A stretch of DNA of 64,000 bases from Vicugna vicugna (taxonomy: Eukaryota). Location of the stretch: assembly GCA_013265495.1 (NCBI GenBank), contig MU060485.1, positions 1,518,599 through 1,582,598 on the forward strand, read 5' to 3'. The notes beneath the pieces were generated by a model that worked only from the letters and a program-made list of their open reading frames with translations, searched no databases and was not told the origin of the DNA. Below, piece by piece: positions 10,328-61,049 of the stretch; within the stretch, counting starts at the first letter, position 1; each line of letters begins with the position of its first letter. Both the position numbers and the translations under genes were made by a program.

Positions 10328-10472
10328 NNNNNNNNNNNNNNNNNNNNNNNNNNNNNNNNNNNNNNNNNNNNNNNNNNNNNNNNNNNNNNNNNNNNNNNNN
10401 NNNNNNNNNNNNNNNNNNNNNNNNNNNNNNNNNNNNNNNNNNNNNNNNNNNNNNNNNNNNNNNNNNNNNNNN
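10328..10472. other. Assembly gap (145 N)
   Basis: N run. Confidence 1.
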
Positions 10473-12989: not shown

Positions 12990-13147
12990 GGAGGAGAGGA
13001 TATAGGTCAGTGGTGGAGCGCATGCTTAGCATGCACGAGGTCCTGGGTTCAATCCCCAGTACCTCCATATAAATAAATAAAAACCTAATTAACCTCCCTT
13101 TCCAAAAAAATAAATAAATGAAGTAAAATCAATATTTAAAAAAAAAA
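12990..13147 (+). mobile_element. tRNA-derived SINE, camelid vic-1 type
   Basis: Head gaggatataggtcagtggtggagcgcatgcttagcatgcacgaggtcctgggttcaatccccagtacctcca (A/B boxes), A-rich tail, TSD gcagttct at 12982-12989 and 13148-13155. Confidence 0.9.
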
Positions 13148-18330: not shown

Positions 18331-18432
18331 CGGGGGAGGGTAATAGCTCAGTGGTAGGGGCCCTTGCTTAGCATGCACGAGGTCCTGGGTTCAATCCCCA
18401 GTACCACTGTAAATTTTTTTTTTAATTGGAAA
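18331..18432 (+). mobile_element. tRNA-derived SINE, camelid vic-1 type (short form)
   Basis: ggggagggtaatagctcagtggtag..gcttagcatgcacgaggtcctgggttcaatccccagtacc; 12-bp TSD aaaagaagctgt at 18319-18330 and 18433-18444. Confidence 0.9.
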
Positions 18433-22379: not shown

Positions 22380-22543
22380 NNNNNNNNNNNNNNNNNNNNN
22401 NNNNNNNNNNNNNNNNNNNNNNNNNNNNNNNNNNNNNNNNNNNNNNNNNNNNNNNNNNNNNNNNNNNNNNNNNNNNNNNNNNNNNNNNNNNNNNNNNNNN
22501 NNNNNNNNNNNNNNNNNNNNNNNNNNNNNNNNNNNNNNNNNNN
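22380..22543. other. Assembly gap (164 N)
   Basis: N run. Confidence 1.
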
Positions 22544-36099: not shown

Positions 36100-36255
36100 N
36101 NNNNNNNNNNNNNNNNNNNNNNNNNNNNNNNNNNNNNNNNNNNNNNNNNNNNNNNNNNNNNNNNNNNNNNNNNNNNNNNNNNNNNNNNNNNNNNNNNNNN
36201 NNNNNNNNNNNNNNNNNNNNNNNNNNNNNNNNNNNNNNNNNNNNNNNNNNNNNNN
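36100..36255. other. Assembly gap (156 N)
   Basis: N run. Confidence 1.
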
Positions 36256-41289: not shown

Positions 41290-41441
41290 CTGTTTTTTTT
41301 AACTAGCATTTATTGTTTAAATATTTATATACTTATTTGTTTGTTAGTTTGTGTAATGGAGGTACTGCAGATGGAACCCAGGACCTCGTGCATGCTAGGC
41401 ATGTGCTTTACCACTGAGCTATACCCACAGCCCCCACCCCC
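41290..41441 (-). mobile_element. tRNA-derived SINE, camelid vic-1 type
   Basis: atggaggtactgcagatggaacccaggacctcgtgcatgctaggcatgtgctttaccactgagctatac; TSD attcatct at 41282-41289 and 41442-41449. Confidence 0.9.
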
Positions 41442-49933: not shown

Positions 49934-50342
49934 ATTCTTATTCCTAGTCTTTTCTGTTATGTTTATTACAGGATATTGAATATAGTTCCCTGTACTATAC
50001 AGTAGAATCTTGCTATGAGTCCCATTCCTGGGTATATATCTAGGGAAAAGTATCATTTGAAAAGATACATGCACCCCAATGCTCATAGCAGCACTGTATA
50101 CAATAGCCAAGACATGGAAACAACCTAAATATCCATCAACAGATGGACTGGACAAAGAAGCTGTGGTATATTTATGCAATGGAATACTACTCAGCCATAA
50201 AAAAGAATAAAATAATGCGATTTTGTAGCAACATGGATGGACCTGGAGATTGTCATACTAAGTGAAGTAAGTCAAACAGAAAGCCAAATATCATATGATA
50301 TCATTTGTATGTGGCATCCAAAAAATGACACGAATGAACTCT
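49806..50342 (-). mobile_element. 5'-truncated LINE-1 with 5' inversion (twin-priming structure) and internal (TA)n(TG)n
   Basis: 49806-50012 is an antisense 3' end; 50013-50340 is sense ORF2-end/3' UTR; imperfect TSD tcttcctttctttt (49792-49805) / tctttctttctttt (50343-50356). Confidence 0.85.
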
Positions 50343-51958: not shown

Positions 51959-52377
51959 CTATCTATTCTTAACTTCAGTGAGTTAACTCTCTACAAAAGG
52001 AAGCAGAAACAAAGTAGTAAACCAAAAACTTACACATTGAGATAAGGACTATGAAGAAAACAAATGTGTTTGTGAGAGATAATAACAGACAAAAAGAACT
52101 AATTTAGGGAAATCTACCCTAAGAGTAAAACTTTAGGTGGAACTGAAGAATTAAAAAACAAATGAAAAAAATAAAATTCAAAGTCCTCACAGAAGGATGC
52201 TTGGAGTCATGGAAGAATCCGAAGACCACCAGGGCTGGAATATGGTTAACAGATAAGTTGATTTGAATGATGGTGGGTTAAGAATGCAGTTAAGCATTTC
52301 CAGTTATATCAAATGATTTCAGGAAGTAAAGCTTAAGGGATCTGATTATCAAAGGAGGCTTAATTTTATAGGCTCAC

Positions 52378-52758
52378 TGTGAGCTGGCCTTGAGATGAGT
52401 TAAGGCCGTGGGACCCAAGGCCACGATCAGAGCATGTTTGTAGTATGCAGTAAATAATTGCTCCACGCATGCGTCAATTATATAAGGTTTAGAACAAGGA
52501 AAATAGAAGTACGCATGTGCTAGAGATATTCTGTAAGCCTAATGAACAAAGAAACTCAGACCGCGCATGTGCTGACAGAAAACAGATAAAAGCGGGACAG
52601 GTGCATAATAGGCGCGCACCTCCCTGTGGCAATAAAGTGTTGTTAACCCCATGGTGTCTCCGGCTGAAGTCTGTCTGGCGGTACGGCAACTCCTCATGCA
52701 TTTTTTCGTTTGGGCCGCTCACCTCCCAGAACTCCACGTCAGCCTCCCTTGGCTGACA
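52378..52758 (+). repeat. 5' LTR (381 bp, TG...CA)
   Basis: Direct repeat of 58414-58795; TATA-like GATAAAA 52585-52591; AATAAA 52631-52636. Confidence 0.97.
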
Positions 52759-52760
52759 CT

Positions 52761-52778
52761 TTGCACTGTGAGCAGGAT
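52761..52778 (+). promoter_or_regulatory. Primer binding site, tRNA-Ser(CGA)
   Basis: ttgcactgtgagcaggat is 16/18 identical to TGGCGCTGTGAGCAGGAT, the complement of the remembered tRNA-Ser(CGA) 3' end; it lies 2 nt after the LTR. Confidence 0.85.
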
Positions 52779-52787
52779 GAGGTGAGT
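52779..52787 (+). promoter_or_regulatory. Major splice donor GAG/GTGAGT (intron would start at 52782)
   Basis: Near-perfect U1 consensus immediately 3' of the PBS and upstream of gag. Confidence 0.75.
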
Positions 52788-52826
52788 GCCCCCTCTGAAT
52801 CCCCTGCCCCTGACGGGGATGCTCTG

Positions 52827-53889
52827 ATGGAAGCAAAGTGGCCCCCTACCTCTGTATGGTACCTGGTGGCCGCCTATTTGCTGACGTGGGCTCAGCCTCA
52901 GGATTGGGACACAGTGGTGTCCTGGCCAGGTGATGTCCGGAGGGCATTGGAGCTGTTAGAAAATAATGTCCCATTAGCCCACCGAGAGGCAGCCGAGAGG
53001 GTGGCCTAGATGTTCTTACCTGTTTTACGGCATGCTAGCCAAGACATGAGAGATTTACAGATGGAAGTGGAGGAGTTACAGTGCAGAGAAGAGGAGCTTA
53101 AGCAGAGACCCAGCACGGCAGAAAGGTGTCTGCATGGTCCTAGCTCTGCCGCCTCTGAGAGCAGCTATGCCTGTGTAGCTCCAGTCCCACTGTCTCTGAG
53201 AGCAGTAAGCCTGACCCCTAGCCCCGTTCCACTGCATCTGTGGCCCATGGTGAGGCAGCAGGTGGAACTGGAGGAGCCCATGGCTCGGGGGGAACTCCTG
53301 TGGGACCACGGTGAGTGACATACGAGTAAATGGACCAAGTATTTGGACTTAATGCAAGTTGTCTGAGAAATGGATGCACCAGATGATGTTCGCTTTGCAT
53401 TTCCATAGTCTAAATGATGAGCTCCTTACAGTTTGAATGAAAGATTTGATTTTGGTTAATAGCCCAACGGGAACATTTGGGAGTATGGCGGCGCTACTAG
53501 TACCGTATGTAGACCACCCCATACGTGAAGTAACTGAGGCTCTGGCTCTTCTGGGGGACATAGAGGTGCGCCGAAAGGGGGTACGTGCTGCCAAGACTCA
53601 AGGTGATTCCAAGACCCCCTCCTCCCGTGCAGTGACTCAGAAAGGGAAGTCCACACAGAGGAGGAAAAAGGGGAATGCTCCAATTTTAGGAGGGCCCCAA
53701 GATCTAGATCGCCGGCAGATACGGTGTGATTTACGGGCAGCTGGCCTAAACCGTGTAAAATTACATGGCCAACCTTTGGAGGTGCTAATGGCCTTAAGGA
53801 AGCAATGATGGCCTGAGCAACAATATACTCCGTTGCCAACCTCCCAACAGGCCTGAGAGGTGGCCTTTGCTGATTTCCTCCCAGACTAG
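52827..53889 (+). pseudogene. gag: gag remnant (class III type, several stops and frameshifts, probable internal deletion)
   Basis: MEAKW..WYLVAAYLLTWAQPQDW; ..MKDLILVNSPTGTFGSMAALLVPYV..KGVRAAK; ends FLPD-TAG; stops at 53007, 53434, 53806 among others. Confidence 0.85.
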
Positions 53890-56800
53890 GAGGAAGGCCA
53901 AGGTGTTCAGGACGGGGGTGGGGGGCATCCCAGTGACTGGAGGCTACGTGTTGAGCTATCCACTGGTCCCCCATGAATAAACAGTGAATATTGGCACTAG
54001 TAGACACAGGAGCTGAAGTTCCATTGGTGCATGGAAATCTGGAACGTTTTCAGGGGCCATGGGTTGATATAGAAGGATATGGAAACAAGCAAATGTATGT
54101 TAAACGAGAGACTCTGATTTTGGGCATTGGCCGTCTGCCCCCTGCTGCAAATGAAGTGCATATATCCCCAGTAGCTGAATATATTCTGGGGATAGACATT
54201 TTGCAAGGATTGCAAATACAGTTGACTCAAGGAGAATTTCACCTGAGAGTTCACGTGGTGAAAACAGTTATATGGGGGCATCCTCCACACGCACCTTTGA
54301 TTTTGTCACAGGCCACACGAATGGTGGATGTCCGGCAATATCGATTGCCTGGAGGCCATGAGGAAATAGGACAGACTATTCTAAAGCTTCAGGAAGCCAG
54401 TGTAACTCAGGCTACGCATAGCCCATATAACTCTCCAGTGTGACCAGTGCAGAAGCCAGACGGCTCCTGGAGGATGACAGTGGACTATTGGGAACTGAAT
54501 AAAGTCACTCCCCTCATGCATGCAGCTGTGATGAATATAACAGATTTGATGGACCGGCTGTCCCATAGACTGGGTACTTGTCACTATGTGGTTGACCTGA
54601 CTAATGCATTCTTCTCAAAAGACATAGTCCCTGAGAGCCAAGAACAGTTTGCCTTCACCTGGGAAGGCAGACAATGGACATTTGTTGTGTTGCCGCAGGG
54701 ATATCTGCACAGCCCCACACTGTGCCATGGCCTAGTGGCCCAGGACCTGGCTACATGGAGCAAACCGGATACTGTTCATGTGTTCCATTATATAGATGAC
54801 ATAATGCTAACCTCTGATTTGCTTTCAGATTTGGAAACCAGTGCCACAGCGCTGCGAGAAGCCCTGGCGGGCTGGGGGTGGACCGTGAACGAGGACAAAG
54901 TGCAAGAACCTGGATATTCTGTCAAATTCTCGGGTGTTGTCTGGTCGGGTAAGACAAAAGTGCTGCCTAAAGCAGTAATAGACAAGATCCAGGCATATTC
55001 CCGCCCTGAAACAATTTAACAGTTACAGACTTAAATTTAAGTCCTCTGGGATACTGGCAGGTATTTATTCCTCATTTGGCCCAAACAGCCAAACCCCTAT
55101 ATAAACTGATTAAAAATGGAAAAGTCTGGAATTGGTCTGATGAGACCAAATGTGCATTTGTTAAAACTAAGAGGGCGATGGCCCAAGCGCAAGCACTGCG
55201 CACTATAGATCCAGACCTCCCTTTCTGGTTAACAGTCCATGTGGACCATGATGGATATGGCTGGGGCTTATGGCAAAAACATGGGCAACGGAAAGTGCCC
55301 ATAGGATTCTGGTCTCAGTTGTGGAAAGGGGCTAAATGTTGTTATTCTCTGATTGAGAAATTGCTAGCAACTTACGCGTCCTTGATTGCCACCGAACCCC
55401 TGACGGGGAAGCGAGAGGTCCAAGTGCAGACCACATGCCCTGTTGCAGGATGGGTACAGACATGGGCAAAGCAACCCCGATCAGGAACTGCCCAAACCCC
55501 AACTCTGACGAAGTGGGCTGCTTATTTGGAAGAGAGGGCCCAGTACACCGCTAGCCCCTTGGCTGCGGAGTTGCAGCAGGTGTTAGGGCCTGTGAGATTT
55601 GTTGCACTGGACGTATAGACGCTCCCACAACAAGGGGTGGACCCTGTGCCCAGTCCCTTTCGTGAAGGGAAAGGGCCACCCCCAGGAACCGCTTGGTATA
55701 CTGATGGATCTTGTAAGGGCAGTCTGCCCACTTGGGTTGCAGTAGCCCTGCACCCTGCCACTGAAGCCTTCTGGTATGAGACCGGAGAAGGCCAATCCAG
55801 CTAATGGGCTGAGTTACGAGCAGTATGGCTGGTGTTGATGAATGAACCTAGTCCCTTACAGATTTGCACCGATAGTTGGGCCATGCAACATGGATACCCC
55901 AATGGGCCCTGCAAGACTGGATGATTGGGCACCAGCCCCTATGGGGACAACAGATGTGGAAACAGTTATGGGATAAAGGCCAAGAAGGCCAGTATAGTGT
56001 TTACCATGTACTAGGGCACCGCCCAGCCCTGGCACCGGGCAGTGATGCTGCTGATGTGCTAGCCCAACTTTGCCCTGTACAGGCCATGGTTCCAGGACCC
56101 GACATAGGTCCCTGGCTCCATAAGAAACTTGGTCATGTAGGCTCATACACAATGAGGCAGGTAGCCGACCGATGGGGCCTGCACCTGAGCCACAGTGAAG
56201 GCAAAGATGCCGCGTGGCAATGTCCATGGTGGGCTAAGCACCACCTGCGCCGGCGGCAGTGGCCCCAACAGATGGGGAGGATTGCATGGAGAATTCAGCC
56301 ATTGCAGGTATGGCAAATAGGTTATGTAGGCCTCTTTGCACCTAGTACAGGCTTGCGGTACCTGCTGCCAGTGGTAGACACCGCTACTGGTCTAGGTTTT
56401 GCTCACTATGTGCCCCGAGCTACATAAGACTCTACTATTAGAGCACTGGAAGTTTTACGGGCCTTTTATGGGACTCCCTTAAAAATACAAAGTGATACAG
56501 GGGCCCCTTTTACTGCCCAACAGACCTAGGAATGGGCCAAGGAAAATGATATTAACTGGATATTGCATGTGCCTTACCATCCTCAAGCAGCAGGAATGAC
56601 TGAACGATACAACAGCCTATTAAAGGACAAACTGAGGGCTCTCAAACCACAAGGGCGAGGCTAAAACAGTGTCTTGCCGCAGGTGGTACATCTTTTAAAT
56701 GAACAACCTACATACAGGTATGAGCCTATTAGAAAAGTTATTGCAAGGGACTATTCAGAGTCTCAGAGTTGGGCCCATGCAGAATGCCTCCGATGTCTCA

Positions 56801-57253
56801 AAAGTGGGGCACACGTTAATATTACACTCCCCCAGGATGTTGAACTCGGGAAAACAGGACACCTGGACATGGAAGAATCAGGTCCAGACTGTTAGCCCCT
56901 GGCTAACCCTTTTGGAACCATGGGGTGATGGGCTAGAGAAAGCCCTGCAGGTAATCCCATGAGTGGGGGAATGGTCTTTTGATGTGCATGTTACTCTAGG
57001 GAAAGCAGGAGTGTCCCTACTTAAAGGAGCAGAAGCCCTACAGCTTTGGGCAGTTCCACTGGTAGCTCCTGAAGCTCTCCCAGAGTGTAACCAACCTAGT
57101 GTGGGTGGGTTGGTGTGGTACCACCGCCCAGGGCGAACAGCCGTTCGTGCGACTGTACTCTCACAGGATAAGAAAGTGGCTTGCATCCTCCCAGAAGAGA
57201 GAGGTTTGCCAATCATGGTGTCCACCTCTGCTCTGTCCTTCCGTCCAGGGTAA
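53890..57253 (+). pseudogene. pol: pro-pol remnant: protease, RT, RNase H, integrase, C-terminal extension
   Basis: LVDTGA (D at 54003); [32 protein letters not shown] 54789-54800; RNase H WYTDGS/AEL/TDS; HHCC region; D(35)E at 56494/56602 with the first D read as G at 56320; roughly 8 stops and 4 frameshifts. Confidence 0.97.
57154..57167 (+). promoter_or_regulatory. Candidate env splice acceptor tgtactctcacag/G (exon would start at 57167)
   Basis: Pyrimidine-rich tract plus CAG/G directly before the env leader region, inside the pol 3' end. Confidence 0.6.
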
Positions 57254-58404
57254 CAGCAAATACCACGTTCTCCTGGGCACACACATTCACGCAAGTCCAC
57301 AACATCTCTCACTGTTGGGTCTATACTGAACTTCCCATAGACGCAGGAGATGGACTGCCATGGCACCTCCACCCCGCGTCCAGAGTTAATTGGAACACCT
57401 TGATTCAATGGAATGCCAACAGGACAGCGAGATCACCCTGGGACTTGCGGCGGCAGACTATTGAAGAGATACTCCGATGTGAGCGGGGCATTGCCTCCCC
57501 CCCAATTGAAAGGACTGTATGGAATGGGTGGGGATGGATGAATAGTGTTTATGTAAAAATGAGACATTTAAGCCCTCTCTGTATTGAGCAGCAGTTTGAA
57601 CACAAGGCTCCAAACCGCACAGTGGGGTGGCTCCCAGAAGAACTATGTGCCAAAATTATTTATAATGTAAATGCCTCCACCTGGTGGGATGGACGACCTT
57701 TAATTGGCGTAAACCCCACTGATTTCTTGCCACCAGGGTACCTGTGGGTATGTGGCACCCACGGATGGTGTTATCTTCCAGCTAAATGGACAGGGCGCTG
57801 TACTTGGGGTAGAGCTTACTTGCCTGGACACATCTGGCCCATTTTAACAGAGCGCCCCACAAACTGGGACCCACTGCACACCCGGTGGCACCAGGGAAAG
57901 CATGCAGCTTGACAGTTTTATCCTATGGCCCTGTTCCTGCCTGGTGCTGGGACCATCAGTGTTGAATTGCAGGTAGAAGCTTTGGCTCAGCACATATCAG
58001 CTGTACTGAATGTTACTAGAAGAGTTATAGAGAAATTGTTAGATGAGACTACCCAGATGCGAAAGGTGGTCTAACAAAATAGAATGGCATTAGATATTCT
58101 CACTGCAAGCCAGGGTGGCACATGTGCTATGTTACATATTGAATGTTGTATCTATATACCAGATCACCAGAAGAAAGTAACTAAGGCACTGCATGAAATA
58201 GATCAGGAATTGGATTGCATAGATCATGTAACTCAGGACCCCCTTAAAAATTGGTGGTCATCCTTGACGTCCTCCTGGAGATGGAGCTTAGCTGTCCTGG
58301 CTATTGTAGCTGCCTGTGTATTAGTAGGGTGCTGTACTCTATATTGTTGTTGTGGTTTTTGGGCACAATGCTCCGTCCTGTGGACTAGGGTCCCCAGGAC
58401 CTAG
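57168..58404 (+). pseudogene. env: env remnant, gamma-type SU/TM
   Basis: CWVY (decayed CxxC) 57313-57324; QGKH (decayed RxKR) 57892-57903; *QNRMALDILTASQGGTC immunosuppressive domain; CAMLHIECC (CX6CC) 58123-58149; hydrophobic TM anchor; in-frame stops at 57910 and 58072; leader frameshift near 57250. Confidence 0.93.
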
Positions 58405-58413
58405 GGGGTAAAA
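58403..58413 (+). promoter_or_regulatory. Polypurine tract agggggtaaaa
   Basis: Purine run directly before the 3' LTR, overlapping the env stop codon. Confidence 0.75.
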
Positions 58414-58795
58414 TATGAGCTGGCCTTGAGATGAGTTAAGGCCGTGGGACCCAAGGCCACGATCAGAGCATGTTTGTAGTATGCAGTAAATAATTGCTTC
58501 ACGCATGCGTCAATTATACAAGGTTTAGAACAAGGAAAATAGAAGTACGCATGTGCTAGAGATATTCTATAAGCCTAATGAACAAAGAAACTCAAAGTGT
58601 GCATGTACTGGCAGAGAACAGATAAAAAGTGGGACAGGTGCATCATAGGCACGCACCTCCCTGTGGCAATAAAGAGTTGTTAACCCCATGGTGTCTCCGG
58701 CTGAAGTCTGTCCGGAGGTATGGCAACTCCTCATGAATTTTTTTGTTTGGGCCGCTCACCTCCTAGAACCCCACATCAGCCTCCCTCGGCTGACA
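58414..58795 (+). repeat. 3' LTR (382 bp, TA...CA; terminal TG mutated)
   Basis: Hand alignment with the 5' LTR gives 24 substitutions plus 1 indel; AATAAA 58668-58673. Confidence 0.97.
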
Positions 58796-59814
58796 CTCAC
58801 ATTTGTGTATATGGACAAAGATGATCTCTACAGGCCAAGAATCAGAGCTTGGAAGGGAAGCAGCTTACAGCTCCTTCCTTTCCAATCTTGGAAAAGTAAA
58901 GCTTACTTACCTTTATTGCAGATAACTGCTCATCGATTATTGGGCTCCTCCAGTGTCTCCATCCAGGTCACAGCTAAGGGATCGAAGACACACAAATAGA
59001 TAATTCATCCTTGGGAAAATTTGGGAGTTCCAGTGGCCAGGAGAGTTGTTAATTCTAGGATTTCTGAGAGTTTGGAATCTTACGCTTTTTCTCCCCCTCA
59101 ACTCCAGGTTTTTTTGATTGTGAATTTGAGATTCTCATTCTGTTATGCTATTTGCAACATATACACTTAAGATGTTTGGTTTTGGCTTCAAATCTATGTA
59201 TTCAGTTCAGTGCTATTGCTACTACATATCTTTAATTCACCTCTGAAATTTATAACTTGCAGCCTTTCTCTTTTTGATTTTTTAAAAAGTTTCTTTCACC
59301 CCCAAAATTAGCTTTCCCAGGTAATACTTCTAAAAATAGTCTCTGATGGGAATTTGGAAGCCTAAGAGATAGTTGTGTCATCCTGTCTTAGAACCATTGG
59401 CTGGAGAACATTCACAACTTTGGGGGTCCTCTCAGGTTTTTGGGCAAAGTTATACATGTCCTACACAAATATTACACATCCTTGCACATCTAAGCAAGAT
59501 TTCTAAACTCAAATGAATAACTTACTAGCTGGATGGGTTAGGAGAGGGTTTTTTGGTTTGTCATTTTTCATCAAGAGAAGACTGAAATCGTCAGTCATCT
59601 GCTTTTCTTGAGGACTGCGTTGGTCCTGGGCAGGGATGGTCTGGCGAGCTGAGAGGGAAGGATTCGTAGCTAAATTTTCCTACTCAAAGCCCAAACACGA
59701 CACTTGGTTAGCTGATACAGGGATAGTTTCACCCTGCAAAGGGCCTAGGAAGCTACAGCTATTAGATACAGAAACGTCACTTCTGTGATATCCTAGCCGA
59801 ACAGTCAAGAGAAC

Positions 59815-60681: not shown

Positions 60682-61049
60682 GTGCTCCAGGGAAACTGAC
60701 CCAGTAGTTAGGCCATGAATAACTTACATTATTATGGGGGCTGGCAAGTCTGAAATCTGGGGGAAGGAGCAGGCCAGCAGGCTGGAAACTCTTTGGGGAA
60801 AAGGCTGATGCTGCAGTGTTGAGGCAGAATTTCTCCTTCTTCAAGGAGCCTCAGTTTTGCTCTTAAAGACTCTCATCTGATTGCATGAGGCCTACCCAAA
60901 TGATGCAGGATGGTCTCCTTTACTTAGAGTTAGCTTATTAGAGATGTTAATCATGTCTACAAAATACCTTCATGACACCTAGATTAGTGCTGATTAAGTA
61001 ACTGAGTATTAGAGCCTAGCCAAGTCGACTTACAGAATTGACTGTCACA
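60682..61049 (-). mobile_element. MLT2 (ERVL) solo LTR remnant
   Basis: gggggctggcaagtctgaaatc, ctgattgcatgaggcctaccca, gagcctagccaagtcgacttacagaattgactgtcaca. Confidence 0.85.

Follow-up and report, generated by a model that had tools for sequence, protein, structure and literature searches.

An old ERV-S provirus of camelids and its candidate SU-only env product, predicted to be spliced through reverse transcriptase

The 64,000-nt stretch of Vicugna vicugna DNA analysed here (the window; all coordinates refer to it and all listed features lie on its + strand) carries an endogenous retrovirus, which is confirmed as a provirus by its paired long terminal repeats (LTRs) bounded by identical copies of CTCAC. 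This locus raises the question of why the surface subunit (SU) of its envelope is still an open frame in an element that is otherwise dead. The explanation that we tentatively put first, giving it slightly less than an even chance, is that an ERV-S provirus which inserted before the camel-llama split and has since died would still produce, from its LTR, a doubly spliced env mRNA, and that its secreted, SU-only product may have been kept by the host as a receptor decoy. The SU frame thus makes a reasonable candidate for co-option, short of proof, and purifying selection may have acted on it. Papers given by PMC number are cited for those parts of their text that were accessible.

Predicted splicing of env and its product

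The env frame has neither a start codon nor a leader of its own. Both would be supplied by splicing, which we have predicted from database gene models, not from reads (Table 1). In these models, exon 1, which matches the N-termini of XP_015097995.1, XP_032334113.1, XP_031312205.1 and XP_045359804, is joined to a short exon 2 that is read in an alternative frame inside reverse transcriptase (RT) and encodes a hydrophobic leader, predicted to be a signal peptide. Exon 3 then supplies SU, where the CXXC position is kept with loss of the second Cys and the furin site is degenerate. Each of the four splice signals is canonical, and the frame runs on across both junctions. In V. pacos, C. ferus, C. 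dromedarius and C. bactrianus alike, the model has 304 aa and ends at the stop at 57910; judging from their isoform labels, the env models probably rest on RNA. A preliminary description of this DNA had reported a readable env and lacked both the spliced architecture and the conserved SU-only frame.

Based on these models, we propose the following course of expression. The 5' LTR, as the likely promoter, would drive a spliced mRNA ending at the AATAAA of the 3' LTR (58668). The double splice would connect the LTR exon, the signal-peptide exon overprinted on RT and the SU exon, and translation would start at the upstream ATG at 52651 or 52777, both of which are retained in all models. The RT-derived leader would route the chain into the secretory pathway, and the stop at the boundary between SU and the transmembrane subunit (TM) would lead to release of an anchorless, glycosylated SU. 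The host may have retained this SU under moderate selection. By analogy with suppressyn, Refrex-1 and ARTenvV (PMC9604959), the soluble protein would act as a decoy that occupies the receptor and blocks related envelopes.

The three-exon model is repeated, leader included, in another camelid provirus (P0160). This leader also recurs in the env models of horse, donkey, Przewalski's horse, Rhinolophus, Choloepus and Eptesicus; among 8 env matches it is present in 5, and P0148 has it too. From their likeness to exon 2 of the window, the leaders of these non-camelid models probably also lie inside RT. Open, full-length Env models of the same lineage with this leader are P0139, P0008 and P0140 (Equus), P0143/P0144 and P0147 (Rhinolophus cluster), and P0010 (Choloepus). 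Horse and donkey Env differ at 9 of 433 residues and the two Rhinolophus-cluster proteins at 15 of 382, and we consider the Equus, Rhinolophus and Choloepus models candidate co-opted env genes. The horse placental env treated in the accessible part of PMC4866760 was rejected as an identity for the horse model found here, for it belongs to a class I element and is a different gene.

It is possible, though on balance rather doubtful, that the ERV-S clade in general builds its Env by double splicing with a leader overprinted on the primer-grip region of RT, and that such env genes have been co-opted repeatedly and unnoticed: as a secreted SU in camelids, filling the gap left by ARTenvV, and as full-length Env in equids, horseshoe bats and sloths. 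If true, the signal-peptide exon inside RT would be an env expression strategy of which we have found no description, for the ERV-S clade or otherwise, in the literature searched. It would explain the leaderless look of ERV-S env frames, and open reading frame (ORF) screens demanding a start-to-stop env with a signal peptide would overlook them. The candidate host genes would then be the soluble SU of camels and llamas and its full-length relatives in horse, donkey, Rhinolophus and sloth. No co-opted env of camelids is described in the papers that could be searched, and the literature searched holds no account of this particular env, two key surveys (10.1093/molbev/msaa180 and PMC6232481) lying outside its coverage.

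RefSeq already carries an annotation of the locus, named by similarity. The database name, 'PABLB member 1 Env-like', is a similarity label only, and the syncytin-Car1 orthologs carry it too. In a search of sequencing runs with SU plus TM, 20 of 24 rows contain the stretch or part of it; 8 are recorded as RNA, four of these 8 being labelled as reproductive-system, and we draw no conclusion on expression, tissue or splicing from these rows. Two further observations concern the models. At 54880-54900, within the leader, the window has Arg at two residues, as has the paralog, where alpaca and all Camelus models have His and Gln; this mismatch could stem from CpG decay in parallel, from gene conversion over a short tract or from a mosaic in the assembly. 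The fifth member of the model cluster, P0137, is a 489-aa alternative isoform of the Camelus type, which passes from 57738 to 57852 of the window, omits part of SU and continues into exons outside the window, suggesting that the provirus may drive chimeric host transcripts.

Age, host range and retroviral affinity

The three Camelus models (C. ferus, C. dromedarius, C. bactrianus) start in LTR sequence. At residues 9, 28, 30 and 34 they match the 5' LTR of the window, where the 3' LTR and the paralog agree on another state. Changes in the region of the primer-binding site (PBS) and the SU stop are likewise common to the Camelus models, and two more 5'-LTR changes are confined to Lamini. Since changes private to the 5' LTR arise after integration, and yet Camelus carries them, the insertion is likely orthologous between the tribes and older than the camel-llama split, as far as residues of gene models can tell. 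This split is dated at 15.8-16.3 million years (My) ago (PMC5577142).

From the divergence of the LTR pair, an age of 9-15 My is obtained at 2.2e-9 substitutions per site per year. At 0.95e-9, a rate resting on a neutral distance between camel and alpaca that we take to be ~3%, the age becomes 21-35 My. The rate for South American camelids, 0.7e-8 and read as per 5-year generation (PMC11102080), amounts to 1.4e-9 per year and gives 14.5-24 My. Overall, the provirus is likely about 16-35 My old.

The preliminary description had instead proposed a young, near-complete provirus of roughly 14 My, possibly restricted to one camelid tribe. The age obtained with the fastest rate agrees with this, and the RT branch of the paralog is shorter than that of the window (0.042 vs 0.12), so younger copies may exist. 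However, the proposal is already contradicted, and we find it hardly tenable: Camelus has the private 5'-LTR residues as well as the changes around the PBS and the stop in SU, which makes the insertion probably older than the split; the South American camelid rate gives a higher age; and gag carries a likely deletion while pol holds 12 breaks. Nor is a restriction to one tribe supported, as the models of three Camelus species share the marks of the insertion and paralogous proviruses (P0149, P0150, P0015, P0160, P0184 and P0013) occur in both tribes. The PR-RT (protease-RT) models of the paralogs are 4-8% apart from each other and 14-15% from the window, which suggests that they are later or better-preserved copies.

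The affinity of the element was assessed by an RT phylogeny, for which 57 of 60 rows were kept and 3 were dropped as too short; the tree contains no foamy or class II row, and its anchors were named by eye against Pol FASTA supplement 6 of PMC1224870 (P0026 as HERV-S, P0317 as chicken gg01-Chr4-48130894, P0339 as HERV-L). The window joins the alpaca paralog (98/96), and this pair is nested in a clade of mammalian and galliform rows (100/99) which includes the HERV-S-like P0026-P0028, with the ERV-L-like P0339 and the Xenopus, gamma-like and gypsy rows outside. At the protein level, RT identity is 87% to the alpaca paralog, 61-66% to rows of the ERV-S clade, 50% to XtERV-S, 46% to the ERV-L-like P0339 and 32% to the gamma-like row; the top match in PDB is foamy Pol. 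The assignment to class III and to the ERV-S clade, which had been proposed before, is thus borne out by the tree, as the window groups with HERV-S and away from ERV-L.

Other characters also fit ERV-S, namely the TGT...ACA termini and the 5-bp target-site duplication (TSD), both as used for ERV-S in PMC8278194, a gamma-type TM, and the absence of a CCHC finger. The gamma-type features of env are, besides the CXXC position in SU, an immunosuppressive domain (ISD) and CX6CC in TM. ERV-L and MuERV-L resemble the window in their class III RT, 5-bp TSD and a domain after integrase (IN) in the position of dUTPase. However, they are without env and have a recognisable dUTPase, whereas the window element has env and, after IN, only a degenerate remnant from which the catalytic motifs are absent.

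Among known relatives, HERV-S and chicken gg01-Chr4-48130894 (PMC1224870) have the same RT clade, with 61-64% RT identity to the window, the same tail after IN and a gamma-type env; compared with them, the window represents a camelid-specific subfamily whose SU frame is conserved across species. XtERV-S (PMC8278194) shares the class III gag-pol, the TGT...ACA termini, the gamma-type env and a CXXC near the SU N-terminus; it has a Ser PBS, the presumed type of the window PBS as well, and its relatives have a 5-bp TSD as in the window. In contrast, XtERV-S is a recent, intact element whose env has a single predicted splice and encodes the signal peptide within its own ORF, and its RT falls outside the ERV-S clade. 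Since env-bearing class III elements, young ones as well as old ones, are known in frogs (PMC8278194), a chicken relative with open pol is known (PMC1224870 supplement), and HERV-S-related elements are found in 29 of 61 bats (PMC12402889), late activity as such is unsurprising. The provirus itself is a new member of a known and widespread clade. A survey of camelid repeats counts 987-1316 ERVL-class elements per genome (PMC8605555), and the family may be present in existing repeat libraries, for example in the library or supplements of that survey. In metagenomes, 45 pattern matches among JGI contigs yielded 0 confirmed relatives, and IMG/VR gave no relative.

Possible signs of selection on SU and competing explanations

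Like co-opted env genes, the element shows the same truncation across a clade, with the models of four species sharing one stop and the 5'-LTR-private residues. Between the tribes, SU differs at 6-8 of 220 residues and exons 1 and 2 together at 8-10 of 82 (Fisher p 0.017-0.033). A CpG-aware neutral model predicts 10, 13, 15, 18 and 20 differences in SU at non-CpG divergences of 2, 2.5, 3, 3.5 and 4%, respectively, and the P of the observed deficit is below 0.01 from 3.5% divergence onwards, 0.03-0.10 at 2.5% and 0.11-0.29 at 2%. The last 100 residues of SU are identical across all five sequences, where 5-8 differences are expected. At the break rate of the element (19 of 1628 codons), SU would be open in both tribes with p ~0.01-0.02, and the whole 304-codon frame with p ~0.002-0.006, both uncorrected for the frame having been picked.

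On the other hand, many observations weigh against a selected decoy. The deficit depends on the assumed divergence, its P rising to 0.03-0.29 at 2-2.5% neutral non-CpG divergence, and the 4 pre-split against 2 post-split LTR changes favour this low range, in which the signal of selection is weak. The estimate of ω, about 0.3-0.6 by the assumed neutral divergence, is a protein-level one and not a codon-based dN/dS. The deficit is confined to the C-terminal 100 residues; all 6-8 differences lie in the N-terminal 120, where 6-10 are expected at 2-3.5%, and against the paralog models the N-terminal half differs at 12 of 81 residues, on a par with the dead PR-RT (36 of 238). Within Camelus, 3 SU sites separate C. 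ferus from C. dromedarius. The hydrophobic leader core of Camelus contains Arg, although horse has Glu in a similar position. Divergence in exons 1 and 2 is neutral-like, and by the time of the split both the CXXC and the furin site were already degraded. In a single lineage, an open SU has p ~0.08. Testing CpG by codon position gave no sign of selection (p 0.29 and 0.61), the alpaca model is present in nr only, its cluster being without a newer alpaca version, and the fold prediction for SU is poor (AlphaFold pLDDT 44). In ESM Atlas, no usable match for SU was obtained. An excess of CpG in SU over TM (p 0.012) was considered as a sign of selection and rejected, since SU equals pol in this respect.

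Much of this would be expected of a neutral relic, in which the LTR is transcribed, old viral splice sites are used, annotation pipelines pick the longest frame, and SU is open and slightly conserved by chance in a slowly evolving genome. We take this to be quite possible and almost as likely as the decoy reading. The chance of an open SU in a single lineage, the neutral-like N-terminal half, as diverged from the paralog as pol, and the Arg in the Camelus leader are all in keeping with it, as are the isoform labels running up to X13, the chimeric P0137, and the paralog P0160, where the same splicing accompanies a broken SU. The prior for any given provirus having a co-opted env is also low. 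Harder to reconcile with mere decay are the lack of any difference in the last 100 residues of SU, a 304-codon frame open in both tribes, and a stop that falls precisely at the SU/TM boundary.

If the host did keep SU, its role need not be that of a decoy. Gamma-type receptor-binding domains usually lie in the N-terminal half of SU, and the conservation observed here lies in the C-terminal half. A soluble or intracellular SU acting in reproduction or immunity, for example on a host transporter or on trophoblast behaviour, or a constraint on the RNA, is therefore conceivable, and we consider it improbable. Precedents exist in suppressyn and ARTenvV, two env genes lacking fusogenic activity, with a placental or an as yet unsettled role (PMC9604959), and the camelid trophoblast has multinucleate cells (PMC9476219). 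However, the giant cells of alpaca arise by mitotic polyploidization, not fusion, according to the title of a reference cited in PMC9476219, and the ISD-bearing TM is untranslated.

Among known co-opted env genes that are soluble or lack TM, suppressyn, Refrex-1, ARTenvV and CARenvV (PMC9604959) resemble the window env in a clade-wide truncation before or within TM, a retained SU frame and a decayed provirus. They derive from class I proviruses, whereas the SU of the window has a class III source and a leader predicted to be spliced in from pol. For these soluble env genes, dN/dS, expression or function has been measured, whereas selection on the window SU is only suggested. Tylopoda have lost the ORF of ARTenvV, whereas other artiodactyls retain this SU-type env (PMC9604959, section 7); the loss makes a replacement conceivable without being evidence for one.

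The nearest named env in a profile search is Syncytin-Car1 (P0152), with ~27% SU identity and a similar layout of SU motifs, its score being inflated by a Car1-like row (P0014) in the profile. Syncytin-Car1 is full length and has its own signal peptide, and the window env lacks both. A full-length fusogenic Env with a translated TM, as in syncytins, is precluded by the stops at 57910 and 58072. The alpaca has a second env family, the P0153 cluster (V. pacos XP_031535719.1, XP_072813421.1, XP_072813103.1 and XP_015107952.2; 323-512 aa), whose motif layout is closer to that of syncytin-Car1.

Structure and decay of the provirus

The features of the provirus are collected in Table 1.

Table 1 Features of the ERV-S provirus and of its predicted env exons in the window
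Feature	Position	Strand	Details
5' TSD, CTCAC	52373..52377	+	sequence
5' LTR, TGT...ACA	52378..52758	+	TATA-like site 52585, AATAAA 52631
Env model exon 1	52651..52781	+	in-frame ATGs 52651, 52696, 52777; donor AG/GTGAGT after 52781
PBS-like 18-mer, partly decayed	52761..52778	+	two bases past 5' LTR
gag, broken	52777..53889	+	stops 53007, 53434, 53806, 53854
pro-pol (PR, RT with YIDD, RNase H, IN), broken	53890..57253	+	8 stops, 4 frame changes
Env model exon 2, 120 nt, inside RT	54829..54948	+	alternative frame; polypyrimidine-AG acceptor, GG/GTAAGA donor
Post-integrase segment	56717..57110	+	likely a decayed dUTPase, catalytic motifs absent
Env model exon 3, complete SU	57249..57909	+	220 open codons, 5 N-glycosylation sequons
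TGA at SU/TM boundary	57910..57912	+	end of 304-aa models in four camelid species
TM remnant, gamma-type (ISD, CX6CC, membrane span)	57913..58404	+	second stop 58072; would fall in 3' UTR
Polypurine tract	58403..58413	+	directly 5' of 3' LTR
3' LTR, starts TAT, ends ACA	58414..58795	+	AATAAA at 58668, likely poly(A) signal
3' TSD, CTCAC	58796..58800	+	sequence

The LTR pair differs by 24 substitutions (19 transitions and 5 transversions) and 1 indel over 380 aligned sites, corresponding to a Kimura two-parameter distance of 6.7%; at non-CpG sites, 14 of 344 differ. The alignment thereby reproduces what the preliminary description had given for the LTRs, with 24 differences over about 380 positions, 1 indel and a perfect CTCAC TSD, and the claimed polypurine tract has been located as well. 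We take the PBS to be of Ser type, Ser(CGA), with two mismatches. A Pfam search gives RVT_1, RT_RNaseH, RNase_H, rve and TLV_coat, one after the other as expected of a provirus, with the protease scoring under the cut-off; TLV_coat matches at E 5e-12. Over 302 compared residues, the window shows 4 differences from the V. pacos env model and 16-17 from the Camelus models, which places the host among the South American camelids. The camelid host and the presence of env, both noted earlier, are supported by this match and by the TLV_coat domain.

The description of the element as near-complete and readable stands only in part. Its pol and env domains are in order, but gag carries a likely deletion, and in the 1628 codons outside SU we count 15 in-frame stops, of which one may be the natural end of gag, and 4 frame changes, these all in pol. 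The provirus is replication-dead and less complete than had been held. Gag may originally have ended at the TAG at 53887. The gene has a length of ~370 codons, whereas the Gag of XtERV-S has 530 aa (PMC8278194), and in it we found no motif like the major homology region (MHR) and, in any gag frame, no CCHC finger. A full-length class III Gag among the matches (P0334) does carry the MHR, and the frame switch at 53315-53362 omits the capsid stretch that holds it in P0334. An internal deletion of roughly 150 codons near 53325, taking out the MHR region, is likely.

The segment after IN (P0004) has no Pfam match. In Pol of the ERV-S clade this segment (56717-57110 of the window; residues 925-1040 of P0317) is colinear with class III dUTPases. 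An hhalign comparison with dUTPase scored 24.5, against a maximum of 19.2 among 40 shuffles, and the only ESM Atlas match shown is a dUTPase at 0.77, which is a lead only. The AlphaFold model has a pLDDT of 50 and is confident solely at an SH3-like C-terminus, and Foldseek returned nothing for it at E 0.001 or better, with PWWP/Tudor/KOW-type matches only. The segment may be a dead dUTPase, which these comparisons suggest and the folding leaves unconfirmed; in the accessible part of PMC8278194, ERV-S is described as being without an identifiable dUTPase.

Outside the provirus, N gaps of ~150 bases lie at 10328-10472, 22380-22543 and 36100-36255, none of them inside the element, and because of these three gaps the window should come from a scaffolded assembly. 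Matches like tRNA-Ala(AGC) are found on the - strand at 12996-13067, 18336-18409 and 41356-41429. The two that were inspected have A-rich tails and resemble SINE heads, which we presume to be those of the camelid Vic-1 SINE. Near the provirus, ~50020-50330 and 60720-61040 resemble what we take to be a 3' piece of an L1 and an old LTR of the MaLR/MLT group.

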